64,000 nucleotides of DNA, from IMG/VR virus record IMGVR_UViG_3300031965_000003, positions 5,350-69,349 of that record. One strand, given 5' to 3'. A program made the position numbers and the translations under genes. Positions 3,233 through 25,991 of this stretch are shown here, in pieces. Below the pieces are notes generated by a model. That model searched no databases and was not told where the DNA came from. It saw only the letters and a program-made list of their open reading frames with translations. This DNA is from a virus. Positions within the stretch are counted from its first letter, which is position 1. Every line of letters starts with the position of its first letter.

Positions 3233-4041
3233 AGTCTTGCCCTCACCTTCTCTAATACCTGCGGATAGACCTCAGGATGTTGTTCGGCAAACTTCTGTTT
3301 TTCTTTTTTCCAGCGGTAGGCCCCAGGATTATCCGGCACGACTTCGAGCCAGAACTGAGTCCAGCGACGGTGATCTATACCGGCAAGACTGAAGTCCTGG
3401 CGCCTAACGAATCCCCTGAGTTCGATGACGGCGCAGATCTCAAGTGCCGCGATTTTCCACATTGTTAGCTGCGTCGGTGCTGGAACACCGGCGGCAACAT
3501 CGGGAATATAGTATGGTAATTCATGGCGTTTGTCTGGATTACAGTAGTGCCAGTGATCAAATACGTCGCGATCATCCAGCCTGGGCCTGAATTCGATGAT
3601 ACCGTTGTAATTTCGTCGCGCCGTGATCATCTCCAGTCCTAAAGCCTCACAAAGACTGCGGTTCGTTCTGTGATCATCGGGAATCAGTACGGCCCTATAA
3701 TCCGGCCCGGTATAACTTCCCCAGCTCGTTCGCGATTCAATGGCCTGGCTCAAGACAGAGATATTGAATTTGAGCTTGGCCTGGACGCCGATCTGAGTAC
3801 CGTCACTACGGGCCAGCAAGATATCCCAGCCCGCAGTTTCGGGATAGCAGACCCAACCGGGATATTTTCTGATCTCAGTCATGAAACTGCTGCACATCTC
3901 GGCTTCTGTCTTAAATATCGGAACTCTTCGTCTCATCCCCTTATCATCCCTAAAATAATTTCCGCCGCCACTTTCTCGCCGATGTTCTTCAGCAATTGTC
4001 CACAGGTCATGAATTTGCAATTTGCAAAAGCACGTCTGCAT
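3229..4041 (-). CDS. Hypothetical protein, possible PD-(D/E)xK nuclease fold
   Basis: YPETAGWDILL...IGVQAK resembles a D...(E/Q)xK nuclease motif. Confidence 0.5.
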   Translation of the reverse strand: MQTCFCKLQIHDLWTIAEEHRRESGGGNYFRDDKGMRRRVPIFKTEAEMCSSFMTEIRKYPGWVCYPETAGWDILLARSDGTQIGVQAKLKFNISVLSQAIESRTSWGSYTGPDYRAVLIPDDHRTNRSLCEALGLEMITARRNYNGIIEFRPRLDDRDVFDHWHYCNPDKRHELPYYIPDVAAGVPAPTQLTMWKIAALEICAVIELRGFVRRQDFSLAGIDHRRWTQFWLEVVPDNPGAYRWKKEKQKFAEQHPEVYPQVLEKVRARL

Positions 4042-4798: not shown

Positions 4799-5050
4799 TC
4801 AGTTCATCCCCACCAACCGATAAAAACTCTTACAAACTCCATCTTCACTCCACTCGTTCTTATGCTCGATGACATATCCATCCCTGCGCAGATCGGCGAT
4901 CCTGGAATGAACGGCAAAGGCGCCGCTGACCCGCCACAGGACCGGCATCTCAACCCACTGGCCCCAGACCCGCGACAGCTCCTTGAGGATTTTTTCCTTT
5001 TGGGAGTGGCCACTATTGTGGGCGCGGAATGCGATTTCGAGTTGGTTCAT
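4799..5050 (-). CDS. Small winged-HTH protein
   Basis: SQKEKILKEL...AVHSRIADLRRDGYVIEH...YRL. Confidence 0.7.
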   Translation of the reverse strand: MNQLEIAFRAHNSGHSQKEKILKELSRVWGQWVEMPVLWRVSGAFAVHSRIADLRRDGYVIEHKNEWSEDGVCKSFYRLVGMN

Positions 5051-5982
5051 GGGGAATCATTCGCCTCGACGGCAAACAATCCTTCATTCAACTGCACGGC
5101 GGACTCCAAATTGCGCCAAGCCTGCTCCCAATAACTGCGCTTCAGTTCCACGCCAATAAATCTACGGCCCATTTGCAAAGATACATAACCCGTTGAGCCG
5201 ATCCCACTAAACGGATCAAGAACAATATCGCCTGGGTTGCTCCAAAGCGTCATGGCACGTTCGATGATATCAAGAGACATTGGGCAGATATGTCTCTCGT
5301 CGTACTCGGTGCGCGCTAAGCGATAATTCAAAGTTCTGGTCGTGCGAATATCCATCCATACCGGCGAGGCATAGCGTCTCCATCGTTCGTGCGACAACAC
5401 ACCCGTCGTTGGCTCATTCTCACCTACAAAACTTTGCAAACCGTGCTCATGTGGAATAGGTTCGGGATTCTTGCCAGGCTTCCGAAATGCGAGCAGATAT
5501 TGCGGTATTCCCGCACGCACCATTGCGGAATCCTTGCAAAGCTGCTTATGCATCAGACCGATTGACTTTGTGCGCGTAGCTTCAATCAGTGGATCTTTCC
5601 AGATACAATGCTCGCTATGAAAAATAAAATGTTCCTTCTCGAAGGCTCGGATTAAATCACCGCGGAAGTCTTTGAGACCAATATGACCGTCGCGCACTTT
5701 CATGGCCGGGATGTTCATGCAATCCACGCCAATCAATCGACCGGGTTTGATGACTCGGAATAATTCTCTAACAATGAATCCAAAGTGATCGAAAAATTCA
5801 GCATCGTCGCGACTATTGCCGAGATCACGGTCAGAAGCGGAATAGACATAGAGAGACGAATATGGCGGACTGAATAGCGAAAAATGGATGCTATCTTCCG
5901 CGAGCCCGCGCAACAATTCTACACTATCGCCGTTGTATAAACTCCAGTGACTACCGATTTTTTGATCAAGAACCAATGGCAT
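5047..5982 (-). CDS. DNA N4-cytosine/N6-adenine methyltransferase (beta class)
   Basis: FSPPY catalytic motif IV precedes the VLDPFSGIGSTG SAM-binding motif I. Confidence 0.92.
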   Translation of the reverse strand: MPLVLDQKIGSHWSLYNGDSVELLRGLAEDSIHFSLFSPPYSSLYVYSASDRDLGNSRDDAEFFDHFGFIVRELFRVIKPGRLIGVDCMNIPAMKVRDGHIGLKDFRGDLIRAFEKEHFIFHSEHCIWKDPLIEATRTKSIGLMHKQLCKDSAMVRAGIPQYLLAFRKPGKNPEPIPHEHGLQSFVGENEPTTGVLSHERWRRYASPVWMDIRTTRTLNYRLARTEYDERHICPMSLDIIERAMTLWSNPGDIVLDPFSGIGSTGYVSLQMGRRFIGVELKRSYWEQAWRNLESAVQLNEGLFAVEANDSP

Positions 5983-7459
5983 AAATCATTTCCACCTTCG
6001 GATTGTATTCAGTTTTTACTCTTACGAGTCCGCCACGAAGCGCTTGCGTATTTAAGTCTTTCATTTCTGCTAGCATGCCGTCTGTCATGCGCTGGGCGTC
6101 GACTTCTTTTCTTTGGATGTTCGCTAATACGGCACCTTCGGTTTTTGCGGTGATGATATGCACATCAACCTGGCGCTTCTGACCAAAACGCCAACTTCGC
6201 CGGACAGCTTGATAAAATTGCTCGTATGAATCGGAGAGGCCGACAAAAATATTATCCGAACAACATTGAAGATTTAGCCCGTAGCCAAACATCACAGGTT
6301 TAGACACAATGGCGCGCGTCCTTCCATCGACGAAATCGATAATGGCTTGCTCTTTATGCTCAGCAGAGTCCGACCCCTTCACTTCAACGGCCCCAGTAAT
6401 GGCCCTAGTCAGTGCATCCGACTCTCGGTTCAGATTGCACCAGACGAGAATTTGTCTGTCGATCGGAATATCATTGGCGATCTCCGCGGCGAGTGCGACA
6501 CGATCCTTGATTGATGATCGCCGCGCCGAGACGCGCTCCTGTAATGTCGCCGCCTCTATCGCGAAGAGCGTCCCATCGGCTGGCTTGCCGGAATCAATCG
6601 TATGAGAAATAAACTTAATAGACGGTAAGAGGAAATCTTTGTCTTCATAGCAGAGATCACTCGGTTTTCTGAGAATGACAGCCCATGAACAAATCCAGCG
6701 CCAGAAATCTTTCTCAGCGTGACCCTTGATCCGCCATTTTGAAGTGTCGCCGCCGTCGTGGACAAAGAACATGGAGAGCATTTCAGTGCGCGTCATCACA
6801 CCAAGAAACTCAGCATGGTTGCATAATTCCATGTGATCGTTCGGCGCCGGTGTGGCGCTACAACAGAGCCTAAACGGTGTCTGTGAAAACACCTCTATCA
6901 ATTGATTGCGGGTTTTCCCATCAAACGCCTTGAGTATCGAACTTTCATCCAAGACGACGCCCGTAAATTGATCCGGCTCGAATGCGGCTAGCCTTTCATA
7001 GTTAGTTATTGTGATTCGCTTGCTGATCTCGTCCTGAGTTTTGGCGAGTCCAACTTCAACGCCAAACTTTTCCGCCTCGCGTTTGAATTGCTGCGACACG
7101 GCCAGCGGCGCGACAATTAAAACTTTTCCCGGAATATGGCGAGCCCATTCCAGAGCCATCGGCCCTTTGCCCAATCCACAGTCCGCCCAGATAGCGGCGC
7201 GGCCACGACGAAGCGCCCAGCGCACCAAATCGCGCTGAAAATCAAATAACATTGGGTTGAGTTCTGGAATCTCTTTCAATCCCGTATCTGGGTCGATGAG
7301 TGTCTTCCCGCTCAAAAATTCCTGATAGCTATTGCCGTCCTGTTTCATGTGCCTGTTAATTATCCTTGCTTCTGGACATTTCTCTTTCGCTTTTGTAGCT
7401 TGATCGGCTTGAAACTGTTCGGCTGTCTCAAACGTTCTGCCGCGATCCGTCGTGATCAT
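5966..7459 (-). CDS. SNF2-family helicase
   Basis: DCGLGKG Walker A variant, LDESS motif II, SATPAPND, GLNLQ, QAVRRSWRFGQ; start trimmed to ATG 7459. Confidence 0.9.
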   Translation of the reverse strand: MITTDRGRTFETAEQFQADQATKAKEKCPEARIINRHMKQDGNSYQEFLSGKTLIDPDTGLKEIPELNPMLFDFQRDLVRWALRRGRAAIWADCGLGKGPMALEWARHIPGKVLIVAPLAVSQQFKREAEKFGVEVGLAKTQDEISKRITITNYERLAAFEPDQFTGVVLDESSILKAFDGKTRNQLIEVFSQTPFRLCCSATPAPNDHMELCNHAEFLGVMTRTEMLSMFFVHDGGDTSKWRIKGHAEKDFWRWICSWAVILRKPSDLCYEDKDFLLPSIKFISHTIDSGKPADGTLFAIEAATLQERVSARRSSIKDRVALAAEIANDIPIDRQILVWCNLNRESDALTRAITGAVEVKGSDSAEHKEQAIIDFVDGRTRAIVSKPVMFGYGLNLQCCSDNIFVGLSDSYEQFYQAVRRSWRFGQKRQVDVHIITAKTEGAVLANIQRKEVDAQRMTDGMLAEMKDLNTQALRGGLVRVKTEYNPKVEMIYAIGS

Positions 7460-10361: not shown

Positions 10362-10661
10362 TTAACTGCTGACCGGGGCGCTACTCCCGGCTCGCCTTAT
10401 AGCCTGGCCGTTTGGCGTTTGTTCTCCGCTTTCGGGATATGCCTCACCGGCAGGATGGGCTAAAAGATCGCGAGACCATGAAAAAGGATTTCTCCTCGAT
10501 CGCTGGAACTCGGTCCATTTCTTTTGACCAGCAGTGAGCGTGTAGGTTCCGGCACCAGGCACGTTGCCCCAAGCTTTCGCCCGACGGTGCTTCTTGACCC
10601 GTGCCCTCTCACGCTTTCCCGGCCGTTGAGCCGCGCGACGTTTATCGCTCGGTCTGCCCAT
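10362..10661 (-). CDS. Arginine-rich small protein (possible RNA-binding)
   Basis: N-terminus GRPSDKRRAAQRPGKRERARVKKHRRAK. Confidence 0.45.
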   Translation of the reverse strand: MGRPSDKRRAAQRPGKRERARVKKHRRAKAWGNVPGAGTYTLTAGQKKWTEFQRSRRNPFSWSRDLLAHPAGEAYPESGEQTPNGQAIRRAGSSAPVSS

Positions 10662-15106: not shown

Positions 15107-15109
15107 ATC

Positions 15110-15145
15110 GAGTGAACGCCGACCTGAAGAAAAAGGGATTAAGAC
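15110..15145 (+). CRISPR. Solitary CRISPR-like repeat unit A (type III-style repeat, not an array)
   Basis: GAGTGAACGCCGACCTGAAGAAAAAGGGATTAAGAC (36 nt); the GACCTGA..AA.AAGGGATTAAGAC core and ATTAAGAC 3' end match the type III repeat family pattern as recalled; near-identical copy at 23499-23533. Confidence 0.7.
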
Positions 15146-22683: not shown

Positions 22684-23436
22684 CTATAGCGCAAGTGCAA
22701 CGGCCTTTTTGATCGCCGCTTTCAGCGCTGTCGCGCCTTCCGCATCCGTGCCGGGCCGAAACGCCAACTCTTTGAGTTTCTGATAGGTCGCCCAGGCTGA
22801 CTCTGCCTCGGTATTCAGTTCGCCCGTCTCCGCGCGATGGATAATCAAGTCCTCTAGTGCGAGCAACGCCGCGAGTTCCTTCCCGTCAGAATTTAACCCG
22901 GCGGCTTCGGATGATGGCGCATCGGCCACGGGCGCCGATTGCGCGCCAGACTGCTCGATGATTTGATAATCCCACGCCGGTTGATCTTTCAGGGCGATGC
23001 CGCGCGGGACATCGCGAATTTCCACTATTGCGTTTTTTGCGACGATCGCGGGATTTTTGCGCGAGCCGCCACTACCAAGATCACCATCACTAACGATCAC
23101 GCCCGTCCCCAAGCGCACGCCGCCGTCGCGGCCATACTTGAGTTGCGCAATTTGCCTGCCGGCGACAAACAAGGAATCGTAATGACCGTTGATCCCGATG
23201 CGGATCGTCACTAGATCAACTGCCGCCTCGGTCCCGTCAACACCGAATATTTCTCGGCACAGTCCCCTGACTCGCGCCTCGTCTCGCGGATCAAACGACC
23301 ATTCTCGGCTCTCAGCCTGCCAAGTGCCGCCTAATTTTTTTGCCGCTGCGGGGAAATCGGGGTGATAAGGGCTGGAGATGCGGAGACGTTGACGACCATC
23401 TTTTAGGACGACCGTCCGATAATTGATATTTGACAT
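22684..23436 (-). CDS. Hypothetical phage early protein
   Basis: SPYHPDFPAAAKKLGGTW...WSF N-terminal module; GGAGG RBS. Confidence 0.7.
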   Translation of the reverse strand: MSNINYRTVVLKDGRQRLRISSPYHPDFPAAAKKLGGTWQAESREWSFDPRDEARVRGLCREIFGVDGTEAAVDLVTIRIGINGHYDSLFVAGRQIAQLKYGRDGGVRLGTGVIVSDGDLGSGGSRKNPAIVAKNAIVEIRDVPRGIALKDQPAWDYQIIEQSGAQSAPVADAPSSEAAGLNSDGKELAALLALEDLIIHRAETGELNTEAESAWATYQKLKELAFRPGTDAEGATALKAAIKKAVALAL

Positions 23437-23447
23437 GGTATCCTCCC

Positions 23448-23474
23448 CGCTCCGGGTCAGCGGAGCGTTTTTTT
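23448..23474 (+). terminator. Hairpin with T7 tail (plus-strand terminator; on the minus strand it overlaps an RBS)
   Basis: CGCTCCG-GGTCAG-CGGAGCG followed by TTTTTTT. Confidence 0.55.
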
Positions 23475-23479
23475 AGGCT

Positions 23480-23497
23480 CGGTTAGCTCCGGGCGGG
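23480..23497. repeat. Early-region leader motif, copy 1 (minus strand CCCGCCCGGAGCTAACCG)
   Basis: Shared with 24964-24991 and 25284-25311; the 11-nt core also occurs at 24038-24048. Confidence 0.85.
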
Positions 23498-23498
23498 C

Positions 23499-23533
23499 GA
23501 GTGAACGACGACCTGAAGAAAAGGGATTAAGAC
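23499..23533 (+). CRISPR. Solitary CRISPR-like repeat unit B
   Basis: GAGTGAACGACGACCTGAAGAAAAGGGATTAAGAC; differs from unit A by one substitution and one A deletion. Confidence 0.7.
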
Positions 23534-23569
23534 CATGCTGCACACTCACCGCGTGGCAATAACACGTCT

Positions 23570-23854
23570 TCATTCCTCCAAGAGCAAGAAGCCTTCTGGG
23601 CGATCATTTTTTGCATTATTAAAGTAGATTCTGGTTGTCATACAATTCCGATCAAATGTAAGCGATTTGGTTTTCAGAGTTTTACAACCGACCCAACCGC
23701 TATGTTTCAGGGCACGCATTATGGTTTTATTGTCACAATCCTGATCATCGGGTAAGGTACAAACATGAGATGTTTTTAACACATTAAAAACGTTCCACCC
23801 GTCCTTTTTGGACCCCCATTTTTCATAGATGTAAACTCTCCATGTCCGTTTCAT
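23570..23854 (-). CDS. Hypothetical protein
   Basis: 94-aa ORF in early operon. Confidence 0.65.
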   Translation of the reverse strand: MKRTWRVYIYEKWGSKKDGWNVFNVLKTSHVCTLPDDQDCDNKTIMRALKHSGWVGCKTLKTKSLTFDRNCMTTRIYFNNAKNDRPEGFLLLEE

Positions 23855-24036
23855 GTTAATTGCTCCTTACTCCTTAGTTGACTAATTTGACGTTGTGCAT
23901 ATTGCCAAATCAAACGTTCAGTGCAGTGAGCTTCCAGCATCTGCGACATGGCCGTTGCTAAAGCTTTCGCAGCACACTCACCATGTGTGGACGCCATTAT
24001 TTCCGCATAATAGTTAAATTTTTCATCTACATTCAT
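23851..24036 (-). CDS. Hypothetical protein
   Basis: ATG 24036 preceded by CCCGGAGCTAAA. Confidence 0.6.
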   Translation of the reverse strand: MNVDEKFNYYAEIMASTHGECAAKALATAMSQMLEAHCTERLIWQYAQRQISQLRSKEQLT

Positions 24037-24055
24037 TTTAGCTCCGGGTAGGCTA

Positions 24056-24406
24056 TTATATTTCCGAGATAACGTAGGTAATCGCCGGGCCTGCAATTGC
24101 TCGTAGACGATCAATACCTAGCTCAACCCCTCGATCTGCTGGGGTCAAAGCTAGCGGTATCTCAGTAACGCTAGCCGCCAATACGGCTAGTGACAGTGGG
24201 AGCACGCCAACCACGTGGCATGCCTCTACATCGTCAGGCTCCGCGTGAGCAATCACGCGAGCATTGTCAGTGACAAGCCCGCGCTCTCGCAGTAGCTCAA
24301 CGAGCGCCGGGTGACGAGTTACCACTACCACGGGCGCGCACGGTGCGCCGGCATCCGGTACGATGCCGCAAAAACGGCATCGACCGTTAGTAAATTTGTG
24401 TTTCAT
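24056..24406 (-). CDS. Csx16 (VVA1548)-family protein; candidate cyclic-oligoadenylate ring nuclease / anti-CRISPR
   Basis: VVVVTRHPALVELLRERG...VIAHAEPDDV...VVGVLPLSLA...LALTPADRGVEL matches recalled Csx16 consensus (SRHPGAIEWL..QG...VAHLD..D...VIGTLPVHLA...LDLP..LRG.EL) along its length. Confidence 0.78.
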   Translation of the reverse strand: MKHKFTNGRCRFCGIVPDAGAPCAPVVVVTRHPALVELLRERGLVTDNARVIAHAEPDDVEACHVVGVLPLSLAVLAASVTEIPLALTPADRGVELGIDRLRAIAGPAITYVISEI

Positions 24407-24422
24407 TTTCTTCTTGTTCTCC

Positions 24423-24728
24423 TTATTCTGTTTCCGCGGCGACAGCGTCGCTGAGCTTTTTCCGCTCGGCGGCTGTTAATTGCCGGATGCCGCCACGCTC
24501 GGTCTGGATCGCCGCGCTCTCGTACTGCGATTGTCCGCTTGATGCCACCAAGCGGACCACCTCCCTAAAACCCTGAGCCCGCACGGTCTGGCATAGATCA
24601 TCCCAGACAACCCACGCCTTATCGTGGATAGAGCGGGCTGGTTTAACCACTGTCACGGTCGCTGCTGTCGCGGGCAGAGGACTGCCAGGTCGCCACCCCG
24701 GCGGCGGTATTGTAGTAATTTTTATCAT
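24423..24728 (-). CDS. Hypothetical protein
   Basis: 101-aa ORF. Confidence 0.55.
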   Translation of the reverse strand: MIKITTIPPPGWRPGSPLPATAATVTVVKPARSIHDKAWVVWDDLCQTVRAQGFREVVRLVASSGQSQYESAAIQTERGGIRQLTAAERKKLSDAVAAETE

Positions 24729-24952
24729 TCTATTGTTCTTTTATTATAATATTCCGTAATGGAGCCTGGGTTGCCTAACCCCTCCCACTCCTCCCATAGA
24801 CAAGCCGCTGCGCGGGTAGCTGCTGTGGCATCCACGCTAGCCGCGATTGCCGAGATCGCGGCTAGATTGGCATCGCTGATCCAGCTGCGGCAGAGGGAGA
24901 CTGCCTCCCTCACGCCGATCCCTGCCGCGGTCAGGTCTAATACGTTAAACAT
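24725..24952 (-). CDS. Hypothetical protein
   Basis: GGAGG RBS directly after the leader hairpin. Confidence 0.6.
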   Translation of the reverse strand: MFNVLDLTAAGIGVREAVSLCRSWISDANLAAISAIAASVDATAATRAAACLWEEWEGLGNPGSITEYYNKRTIE

Positions 24953-24963
24953 TTCGTTCCTCC

Positions 24964-24991
24964 GTTCTCGGCCCGGTTAGCTCCGGGCGGG
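24964..24991. repeat. 28-bp direct repeat / leader hairpin, copy 2
   Basis: GTTCTCGGCCCGGTTAGCTCCGGGCGGG, identical to 25284-25311. Confidence 0.92.
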
Positions 24992-25011
24992 CTTGCTGGT
25001 GCGCTCCATTA

Positions 25012-25251
25012 TCAATCCAATCCTCGCGCAACAAATCCGCGTTGCGCCAACGGGACACAAATATGATCCTCACACGCGCCATTGACGACGCGGTAGATAG
25101 CTCCGCAGTCCTTGCAGGAGAGCGAGCCGTACTTAGTCGTCCGCGCCACATCATTATTTTTTAGGATATCAAACTCGGCCTTCCGCGCCGCCCAGCAACA
25201 TGGGCGCTGTGGGTCGTCAGTGTTACAAAAATGTCGGTATTTGCGTTCCAT
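25012..25251 (-). CDS. Hypothetical Cys-rich protein flanked by 28-bp repeats
   Basis: GGAGGAGG RBS; CC, CKDC, C..H.C. Confidence 0.65.
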   Translation of the reverse strand: MERKYRHFCNTDDPQRPCCWAARKAEFDILKNNDVARTTKYGSLSCKDCGAIYRVVNGACEDHICVPLAQRGFVARGLD

Positions 25252-25283
25252 TTTGTCCTCCTCCGCTCCGGTCGGGGAGCGTT

Positions 25284-25311
25284 GTTCTCGGCCCGGTTAG
25301 CTCCGGGCGGG
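25284..25311. repeat. 28-bp direct repeat / leader hairpin, copy 3
   Basis: Identical to 24964-24991; contains perfect stem GCCCGG-N6-CCGGGC. Confidence 0.92.
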
Positions 25312-25497
25312 TTTGGTGTTTTTTGGGTCGATTTTTTTTAGCACATCACCGGTTAGGCCTTGCGCGTGGGCGGTGCGTAGGCAGTGCGCATGGATCGCCT
25401 CGGCAATAAACCGCTGGAGGGTTACCCCAGTGCGCGCGGAGAGAAACTTAGCCGCCGCGTGAGTTGCGTTATCCAAACCTGTAATCCGTAGTTCCAT
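25297..25497 (-). CDS. Ribbon-helix-helix (Arc/CopG-like) regulator, first early gene
   Basis: Alternating strand ELRITGLD, then helices NATHAAAKFLSARTG and VTLQRFIAEAI. Confidence 0.65.
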   Translation of the reverse strand: MELRITGLDNATHAAAKFLSARTGVTLQRFIAEAIHAHCLRTAHAQGLTGDVLKKIDPKNTKPARS

Positions 25498-25519: not shown

Positions 25520-25552
25520 TGTGTAATTTAACACATTCCGCATATTTGTCAA
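25520..25552 (-). promoter_or_regulatory. Early sigma70-like promoter with overlapping inverted repeat
   Basis: TTGACA (25547-25552), 16-nt spacer, TGn-TAAATT (25525-25530); TGTGT-N6-ACACA brackets the -10; AT-rich upstream tract. Confidence 0.65.
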
Positions 25553-25991
25553 TAGGGGCTGAAAAATATTTTTTGCCAGTGGAAAATACCTTTACTTATT
25601 AAGTATTTATCAAGATTTTAATCGCTTAGACTGGGTAGATATCCGCTGACACTCTATATATAAGGATAAGGTTAGAGCCGGCGGAGGGTTGAAACCGCGG
25701 CGCCGCACGTCTGATCAAAACTGACGGGCAGTCGATTTATATCGATACGCAAGCCCCATAAATCGATATCCAAATGTGGCGGTCCGCGGTGTCTCATAGT
25801 CAGCAGAAATCGCGCCGGCTTGAAAACTTCGCGAGGATGAACGAGAGAAGCCGTCGTTGTCGTTGGTTGTTATGTTAAAGAAAATTATCAACCAGCGATC
25901 ATTTTTTCTCAAGCTAGTGTCTTAACTCGACTAGGCGATGTTAATGATACTTAATATCCACAACACCATGATCATTGGCGCCCCGTATGCG

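Follow-up and report, generated by a model that had tools for sequence, protein, structure and literature searches.

Background

Two kinds of short repeated sequences in bacteriophage genomes are the closest described relatives in kind of the intercistronic element analyzed here, whose 11-nt core occurs four times among the early genes in a 64,000-nt stretch of viral DNA (positions 5,350 to 69,349 of the IMG/VR record IMGVR_UViG_3300031965_000003; hereafter the window). The promoter-early stem-loops (PeSLs) of T4-type phages are short conserved cassettes, each composed of a strong sigma-70 promoter and a terminator stem-loop, which lie between small non-essential early open reading frames (ORFs) in hypervariable regions and both mark and mediate the shuffling of gene cassettes (Arbiol et al. 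2010, PMC2839356; Comeau et al. 2014, PMC4122927). The start-associated sequences (SAS) of Cluster K mycobacteriophages, the function of which is unknown, have a Shine-Dalgarno core 3–7 bp before the start codon, and their extended version (ESAS) adds an inverted repeat just upstream of the SAS (Pope et al. 2011, PMC3203893).

The present element resembles PeSLs in its location between small ORFs of a variable region and in that insertions, deletions and replacements between relatives map to it; however, its conserved block of 23 nt contains no sigma-70 hexamers, and it has neither a terminator stem-loop nor a U-tract. Its combination of stop codon, hairpin, Shine-Dalgarno site and ATG implies that it would act within one transcript, unlike PeSLs, which form separate transcription units. 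With SAS and ESAS it shares the asymmetry, the single orientation, a Shine-Dalgarno core a few bases before a start codon (mostly ATG), the restriction to non-structural genes and, in some cases, an upstream stop codon inside the element. On the other hand, the 13-bp SAS consensus GGGATAGGAGCCC is absent, the sequence and the phages are unrelated, and the present element, unlike SAS and ESAS, is common to contigs that have no other similarity and marks points of cassette exchange. The inverted repeats of ESAS are imperfect, 17 bp long and separated by a spacer of 4–13 bp, whereas in the present element six perfectly paired GC positions enclose a loop of 6 nt; moreover, little support was reported for RNA pairing in ESAS (PMC3203893), while the present element exhibits one compensatory change. 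Of the known elements, the present one looks most like ESAS and works like PeSLs, and is a member of neither class.

More distant parallels can also be drawn. In the modular theory of Susskind and Botstein, the linker or boundary sequences of lambdoid phage mosaics are said to be proposed sites of module exchange; these are likewise short, conserved and situated at gene boundaries, but the present linker is a defined unit of a hairpin and a ribosome site, repeated within one operon. Synthetic cistron insulators, in which a Csy4 hairpin or RiboJ is placed before the ribosome-binding site, resemble it in having a hairpin of about 28 nt directly upstream of that site for context independence, but they need a cleaving enzyme or a ribozyme, whereas the present element is known from its sequence and a computational test of accessibility revealed no effect (see below). 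Integron attC sites, which are 57–141 bp long, exhibit paired R''/L'' and L'/R' boxes and are recognized by an integron integrase, were also considered and rejected, as the element is 23–28 nt long and has a single 6-bp stem and no partner GTTRRRY site.

Copies of the element in the window

We favor the interpretation, with a probability of about 0.55, that the element is a portable junction between cistrons and a site of exchange for early-gene cassettes, with the hairpin most plausibly stabilizing or marking segments of the RNA. The element is locked to the orientation of the genes, is found only among the small early genes, and is reused unchanged before unrelated genes in many uncultured phages.

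The 11-mer CCCGGAGCTAA occurs exactly four times in the window, always on the minus strand, which is the gene strand, and within 1.9 kb (25297–25307, 24977–24987, 24038–24048 and 23483–23493, corresponding to copies 1 to 4). None of 100 dinucleotide shuffles reached four matches, even with one mismatch allowed, and no further copy was found in the remainder of the source record (95 kb, estimated to be 80% complete), of which the window is a part. Each core lies upstream of a start codon, with gaps that are, in ascending order, 1, 24, 45 and 46 nt, and copies 1 and 2 share an identical 28-mer (25284–25311 and 24964–24991) with a perfect 6-bp GC stem and the 6-nt loop AGCUAA. On the four positions, their location before start codons and the identical 28-mers, our analysis agrees with the preliminary description of this DNA, which had been made by reading the sequence without database searches. 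Its claim that the hairpin itself is repeated holds for three full copies, while copy 3 lacks the 3' arm and, with it, the hairpin; as copy 3 is fused directly to the ATG, the role of the Shine-Dalgarno site falls to its own GGAG. When the window was searched, with filters off, using a covariance model derived from the family described below, the same three full copies were identified and nothing else. The second hairpin (CGCTCC...GGAGCG) announced in that description is indeed present after copies 1 and 4, but it abuts the Shine-Dalgarno site instead of overlapping it (Table 1).

Two other features were observed at copy 4. On the plus strand, its second hairpin together with a run of seven T residues (23448–23474) has the shape of an intrinsic terminator directed against the early operon. 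Furthermore, copy 4 is adjoined by a repeat of about 36 nt (23498–23525), which recurs 8.4 kb away, before another gene (15109–15136), with 93% identity over 28 nt.

A family of elements in uncultured phages

In IMG/VR we identified one near-identical copy (27 of 29 bases), in contig L008/L124, where it follows the first small gene of another early operon. A scan of metagenomes, in which an exact match to a 22-mer was demanded, revealed 18 contigs from the Hainich groundwater and several soils, compared to less than one expected by chance. Duplicates were dropped and a match in a bacterial coding sequence was set aside; 15 of the 18 contigs were retained as family members, and the final set comprises 22 copies, from the window and 14 contigs. 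Their common layout is an upstream stop codon, the hairpin, an A-rich spacer of 2–8 nt ending with AAC, AAGGAGG and ATG. The upstream ORF terminates either 0–39 nt ahead of the hairpin or within it; in the latter case, seen in about 9 of the 22 copies, its stop codon is the TAA or TGA of the loop. A Shine-Dalgarno site and an ATG follow the element in 19 of 22 copies; in 17 copies a site of the AAGGAGG type (often with an extra G) begins 2–8 nt past the hairpin, and the ATG comes 3–8 nt later. Apart from copies 1 and 4 of the window, a second hairpin between the element and the Shine-Dalgarno site is present in L123. The copies are clustered, two or three per 0.3–2 kb, in groups of small genes that follow an early promoter, and in L124, L115 and L128, as in the window, one of them is found after the first early gene. 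The orientation is locked to the genes throughout, and the copies in the window and in the whole record are confined to the early region.

Neither the 3.4-kb region nor the 49-nt element matched anything in cultured phages, none of the 80 loci that carry the neighboring PAPS-reductase-like gene contains a copy, and no Rfam family was matched at the elements with E-values up to 5. An 18-mer searched against 185,579 species genomes gave single, non-arrayed matches in many phyla, and those examined were inside genes; we rejected these matches as members of the family, since such single, scattered and intragenic occurrences are chance-like. The coding-sequence match set aside above is an exact 23-mer inside an 809-aa ORF from the metagenome-assembled genome of a soil Gammaproteobacterium (L141, ~3497–3519, identical to L116 and L132), where it is translated as ARPELTGP and is followed by no Shine-Dalgarno site; it is probably a chance occurrence, although an exact 23-mer would not be expected.

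Leaders of related appearance were found alongside the family. A scan with a pattern that left the loop free and kept the stem fixed identified a similar arrangement of hairpin, Shine-Dalgarno site and ATG in seven other contigs (L101–L103, L108–L110 and L114), from a different phage group. It consists of a stop codon, a CCCGGC-UCUG-GCCGGG hairpin, CCAAGAAGAA, AGGAG and ATG. The leader of L101 heads another gene than those of the remaining six contigs, which points to a swap at the start codon; as the stem was fixed in the pattern, this group is uninformative on covariation. There are also junctions without a hairpin (L128, ~2905–2919; L121, ~6512–6527; L123, ~750–775), in which the word GGAGCU(A/G)A or GGAGCGGAA, i.e. 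a Shine-Dalgarno site combined with a stop codon, directly precedes the ATG, as in copy 3. Such hairpin-less junctions may represent the origin of the hairpin element.

Homology between contigs breaks at the element

When the 22 copies were compared pairwise, related flanks were seen in only two of the 231 pairs, and tblastx revealed almost no proteins common to the contigs that bear the element. In five comparisons homology starts or stops at the element or within a few bases of it. The most detailed one concerns the 79-aa gene between copies 1 and 2, which has an orthologue (75% aa identity) in L152, which comes from a complete phage of 46 kb. The nucleotide homology between the window and L152 begins at 25323, where the 23-mer of copy 1 is still 11 nt away, and ends at 24993, a single base ahead of copy 2; this block, comprising the leader of the 79-aa gene, the gene itself and the next six codons, is the only part of the window homologous to L152. 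In L152 the orthologue is followed by a 127-aa gene, the first six codons of which are retained in the window and joined to copy 2; the five bases AGCAA at the joint are found also in the extended 5' flank of L122, suggestive of an event driven by microhomology. The collinearity of L123 and L131 ends at a stop codon; the element comes immediately after it in L131, whereas an extra 76-aa gene is interposed in L123. L120 and L125 differ upstream but have the same element and the same sequence downstream of it; conversely, positions 33 and 1035 of L119 have the same upstream sequence and different downstream genes, and L115b and L119b are similar upstream and different downstream. Several short contigs terminate at the element or close to it, which is the usual behavior of repeats that introduce branches into an assembly graph. 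The earlier suggestion that the element punctuates the early genes as a cassette boundary or recombination handle is thus supported by the comparison with other contigs, in which homology breaks at the element.

A third phage (L153) also possesses an orthologue of the 79-aa gene. Between it and the first early gene lies an unrelated long G12/C9 hairpin (4915–4975), which contains a 15-nt tandem duplication.

The hairpin as a putative RNA structure

Among the copies outside the search seed the stem is invariant, while the 5' flank varies (GCCCG, ACCCG, CCCCG, CUCCG, CUACG, GCCCA); across the family and L152 the loop appears as AGCUAA, AGCUGA, GAUUAA, GGCUG and ACCGAG. Altogether there are two exceptions to the constancy of the stem: one uncompensated mismatch and one compensatory change. 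The latter is found in the orthologous leader of L152, where CCUGG/CCAGG replaces CCCGG/CCGGG of the family, i.e. U-A replaces C-G, and the loop differs as well; in addition, the outer pair of the second hairpin is A-U in L152 and C-G in the window. L152 provides the single orthologous leader of this comparison, five further orthologues of the 79-aa gene (P0001–P0003, P0005, P0006) lying outside it. The fold z-scores of copy 1 and of the L152 leader are -2.2 and -3.2, respectively. The evidence lends modest support to an RNA structure, and the RNA hairpin of the preliminary description is plausible by virtue of this one compensatory change in the stem.

In the favored interpretation, the element is a unit of about 45–50 nt in the early polycistronic mRNA, made up of a stop codon, a very stable 6-bp GC hairpin, a short A-rich spacer with AAC at its end, a consensus Shine-Dalgarno site and an ATG. 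The element would supply a stop codon to any ORF running into it, and the hairpin, which would work in RNA as a self-contained structural unit, could be a barrier to exonucleases or a processing mark. Identical copies of 23–50 nt could offer homology to phage recombination enzymes or an anchor for microhomology, so that single-gene cassettes would be gained, lost or swapped and each incoming gene would retain a working start region. Should this be true, the element would be a natural "plug-and-play" joint: a small gene placed behind it would bring along a stop codon, a stable hairpin and an optimal ribosome-binding site, and since such a gene arrives with a full junction, accessory or anti-defence genes could be transferred from one phage to an unrelated one with immediate expression. 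The idea behind PeSLs and SAS would then be extended from T4-type phages and mycobacteriophages to uncultured siphophages of groundwater and soil, and a defined part of 50 nt would be available for use in reporters.

Several results weigh against this interpretation or against parts of it. The exact 22-mer demanded by the seed search inflates the apparent conservation. The left joint between the window and L152 lies within a gene, which argues for an illegitimate or microhomology-driven event (at AGCAA) and not for an exchange between two elements. The covariation amounts to one double change in six pairs, a level matched by 31 of 500 shuffles, and a scan of IMG/VR in which the five inner stem pairs were left free returned 80 matches with chance-level complementarity, none of them fully paired. 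The fold z-scores of copies 2–4 and of L124 are unremarkable, so that copy 1 stands out alone among the four leaders with the family hairpin that were tested. In copy 4 a G-to-A change creates an uncompensated C/A mismatch in the stem, and in the minimum-energy fold of this copy the C-rich 5' arm pairs with the Shine-Dalgarno region instead. Finally, the predicted probability that the Shine-Dalgarno site is unpaired is 0.599 in the native sequence and 0.598 after deletion of the element, hence an insulator effect is not visible in silico (a control with the 3' arm reversed was void, because the arm is palindromic). The same comparison gives no support to the translational switch envisaged earlier. 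An intrinsic terminator was rejected as well: the hairpin is followed by an A-rich spacer with no U-tract on the transcribed strand, and a scan revealed no terminator-like site on the gene strand at any copy.

Alternative explanations

The hairpin could also be a site for a trans-acting RNA-binding protein, either an antiterminator of the boxB/N type or a translational repressor, that co-regulates the early genes. The strong conservation of the sequence, including most loop positions, would be in agreement with such a role, as would the position of copy 1 (and of its counterparts in L124, L115 and L128) just after the first early gene, which resembles the location of nutR after cro in phage lambda, and the presence of an Arg-rich ORF at 10362–10661. 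Nevertheless, we regard this explanation as unlikely, because the loop is variable (the L152 orthologue differs at 4 of 6 positions), each operon has several copies, all of them linked to Shine-Dalgarno sites, and no protein common to the element-bearing contigs was found, though these contigs are short; the Arg-rich ORF is located ~15 kb downstream and has no match in Pfam or PHROG. The lambda nut site, with boxA, a boxB with a conserved loop, the Arg-rich N protein and one site per early operon, presents a different picture from the varying 6-nt loop and 3–4 copies per operon seen here, and CGCUCC beside copy 1 is itself paired in a hairpin of its own, and therefore is not a linear boxA. On these grounds the proposal of a boxB-like protein site, put forward in the preliminary description, found no support. 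We rank next, and also consider improbable, the possibility that the element is a recombination scar or a selfish short repeat with no function in RNA, which would persist by hitchhiking with the Shine-Dalgarno site and start codon of every cassette and be homogenized by gene conversion. Such a repeat would account for identical 23-mers in unrelated contexts with almost no covariation, for the many contigs that end at the element (repeats commonly interrupt assemblies), and for the predicted accessibility that stays the same after deletion. It is harder to reconcile with the drift of the flanks and the loop around a stem that varies least of all, with the compensatory changes in both hairpins of L152, and with the strict orientation and spacing to the Shine-Dalgarno site.

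Considerably less probable is that the hairpin serves as a substrate or decoy for a hairpin-specific endoribonuclease, a Cas6/Csy4-like enzyme of the host or some phage factor. Cleavage immediately ahead of every ribosome-binding site would then divide the early RNA into insulated messages of one gene each; in the other version the copies would serve as decoys. The identical 28-nt unit, in which the GC hairpin is extended by 7 nt terminating in GAGAAC, has a shape that we take to be similar to that of a CRISPR repeat, and a Csx16-like gene is located ~570 nt away; if the decoy version were true, the copies would soak up Cas6 and constitute an RNA anti-CRISPR (a mimic of the CRISPR repeat) built into mRNA leaders. 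RNA anti-CRISPRs (Racrs) have been published (PMC10651486). However, no array was seen among the 18-mer matches in the species genomes, which are all single, the sequence of the tail differs between members of the family, and there is no match to CRISPR-DR families of Rfam. We give still less credence to a promoter from which an RNA polymerase, either encoded by the phage or redirected, would produce a separate transcript of each cassette. The conserved block of ~23 nt ends 10–20 nt before the start codon, and promoters of single-subunit RNA polymerases have a comparable geometry relative to the start, but the transcript leaders would then be only a few bases long, no sigma-70 hexamers are found at the elements, the phage is a siphovirus with an early promoter of the host type, and a search with PF00940 (T7-type RNA polymerase) revealed no candidate in the ~80%-complete record, although the controls of this search gave no signal either. 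The least credible of all, in our opinion, is that the RHH protein, the product of the first gene, uses the element as its DNA operator. The inverted repeat CCCGG-N6-CCGGG does follow the RHH gene, yet the first genes in the other element-bearing contigs are unrelated, the flanks are asymmetric, the orientation is fixed and the position is tied to Shine-Dalgarno sites; another palindrome, at the -10 region of the early promoter, is a likelier operator.

The early operon and its genes

The phage is a siphovirus, as judged from the encoded tape-measure protein, J-like tail fibre and head protease, and it encodes recombination-type nucleases. Essentially all long ORFs are on the minus strand. The promoter scan identified hexamers on the gene strand only at 25525–25552 and 25884–25912, and a separate palindrome brackets the -10 hexamer of the former site. 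A run of small genes is located downstream of it, including the genes for the 66-aa RHH-like and the 79-aa Cys-rich proteins, ORFans of 75 and 101 aa, the 116-aa Csx16/VVA1548-like protein, ORFans of 61 and 94 aa, and the 250-aa protein (Table 1).

Table 1. Elements, hairpins and genes of the early region (window coordinates)
Feature	Position	Strand	Remarks
sigma-70-like early promoter	25525..25552	-	TTGACA, 16 nt, TAAATT; TG before -10
First early gene, 66 aa, weakly RHH/Rv0623-like	25297..25497	-	terminated by the loop TAA of copy 1
Element copy 1, full hairpin	25284..25312	-	stem 25302-25307 with 25291-25296; 3' tail GAGAAC; 41 bits
Second hairpin (CGCUCC / GGAGCG)	25264..25281	-	between copy 1 and the Shine-Dalgarno site
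79-aa Cys-rich gene	25012..25251	-	copies 1 and 2 on either side
Remnant ORF, 11 codons (MERTSKPARS)	24977..25009	-	ended by the TAA in the loop of copy 2
Element copy 2, full hairpin	24964..24992	-	followed by GAGAAC, GGAGG, 6 nt and ATG 24952; 43 bits
75-aa ORFan	24725..24952	-	headed by copy 2
116-aa Csx16/VVA1548-family gene	24056-24406		Pfam E = 7e-13; among early cassettes
Element copy 3, 5' half only	24038..24053	-	14/16 bases match; ATG 24036
Element copy 4, weakened stem (CCGAGC 3' arm)	23476..23498	-	41 bits
Second hairpin of copy 4, 7-bp stem	23448..23467	-	
250-aa gene	22684..23436	-	phrog_18108; headed by copy 4

No relatives of the 250-aa and 75-aa genes were found in IMG/VR. The Csx16/VVA1548-like protein is a candidate anti-type-III-CRISPR factor; the term anti-defence genes of the preliminary description fits this single cassette gene, while the remaining ones are ORFans.

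A further observation concerns the promoters of other members of the family. The consensus of sigma-54 promoters, TGGCAC-N5-TTGCT, is absent from the window, but near-perfect versions of it were detected within a common 20-nt block in L124 (minus strand) and L128, ~195 nt and ~235 nt upstream of the element, respectively, and directly before the first small early gene. L124 and L128 are otherwise unrelated, and ~0.2 such matches would be expected in the 420 kb searched.

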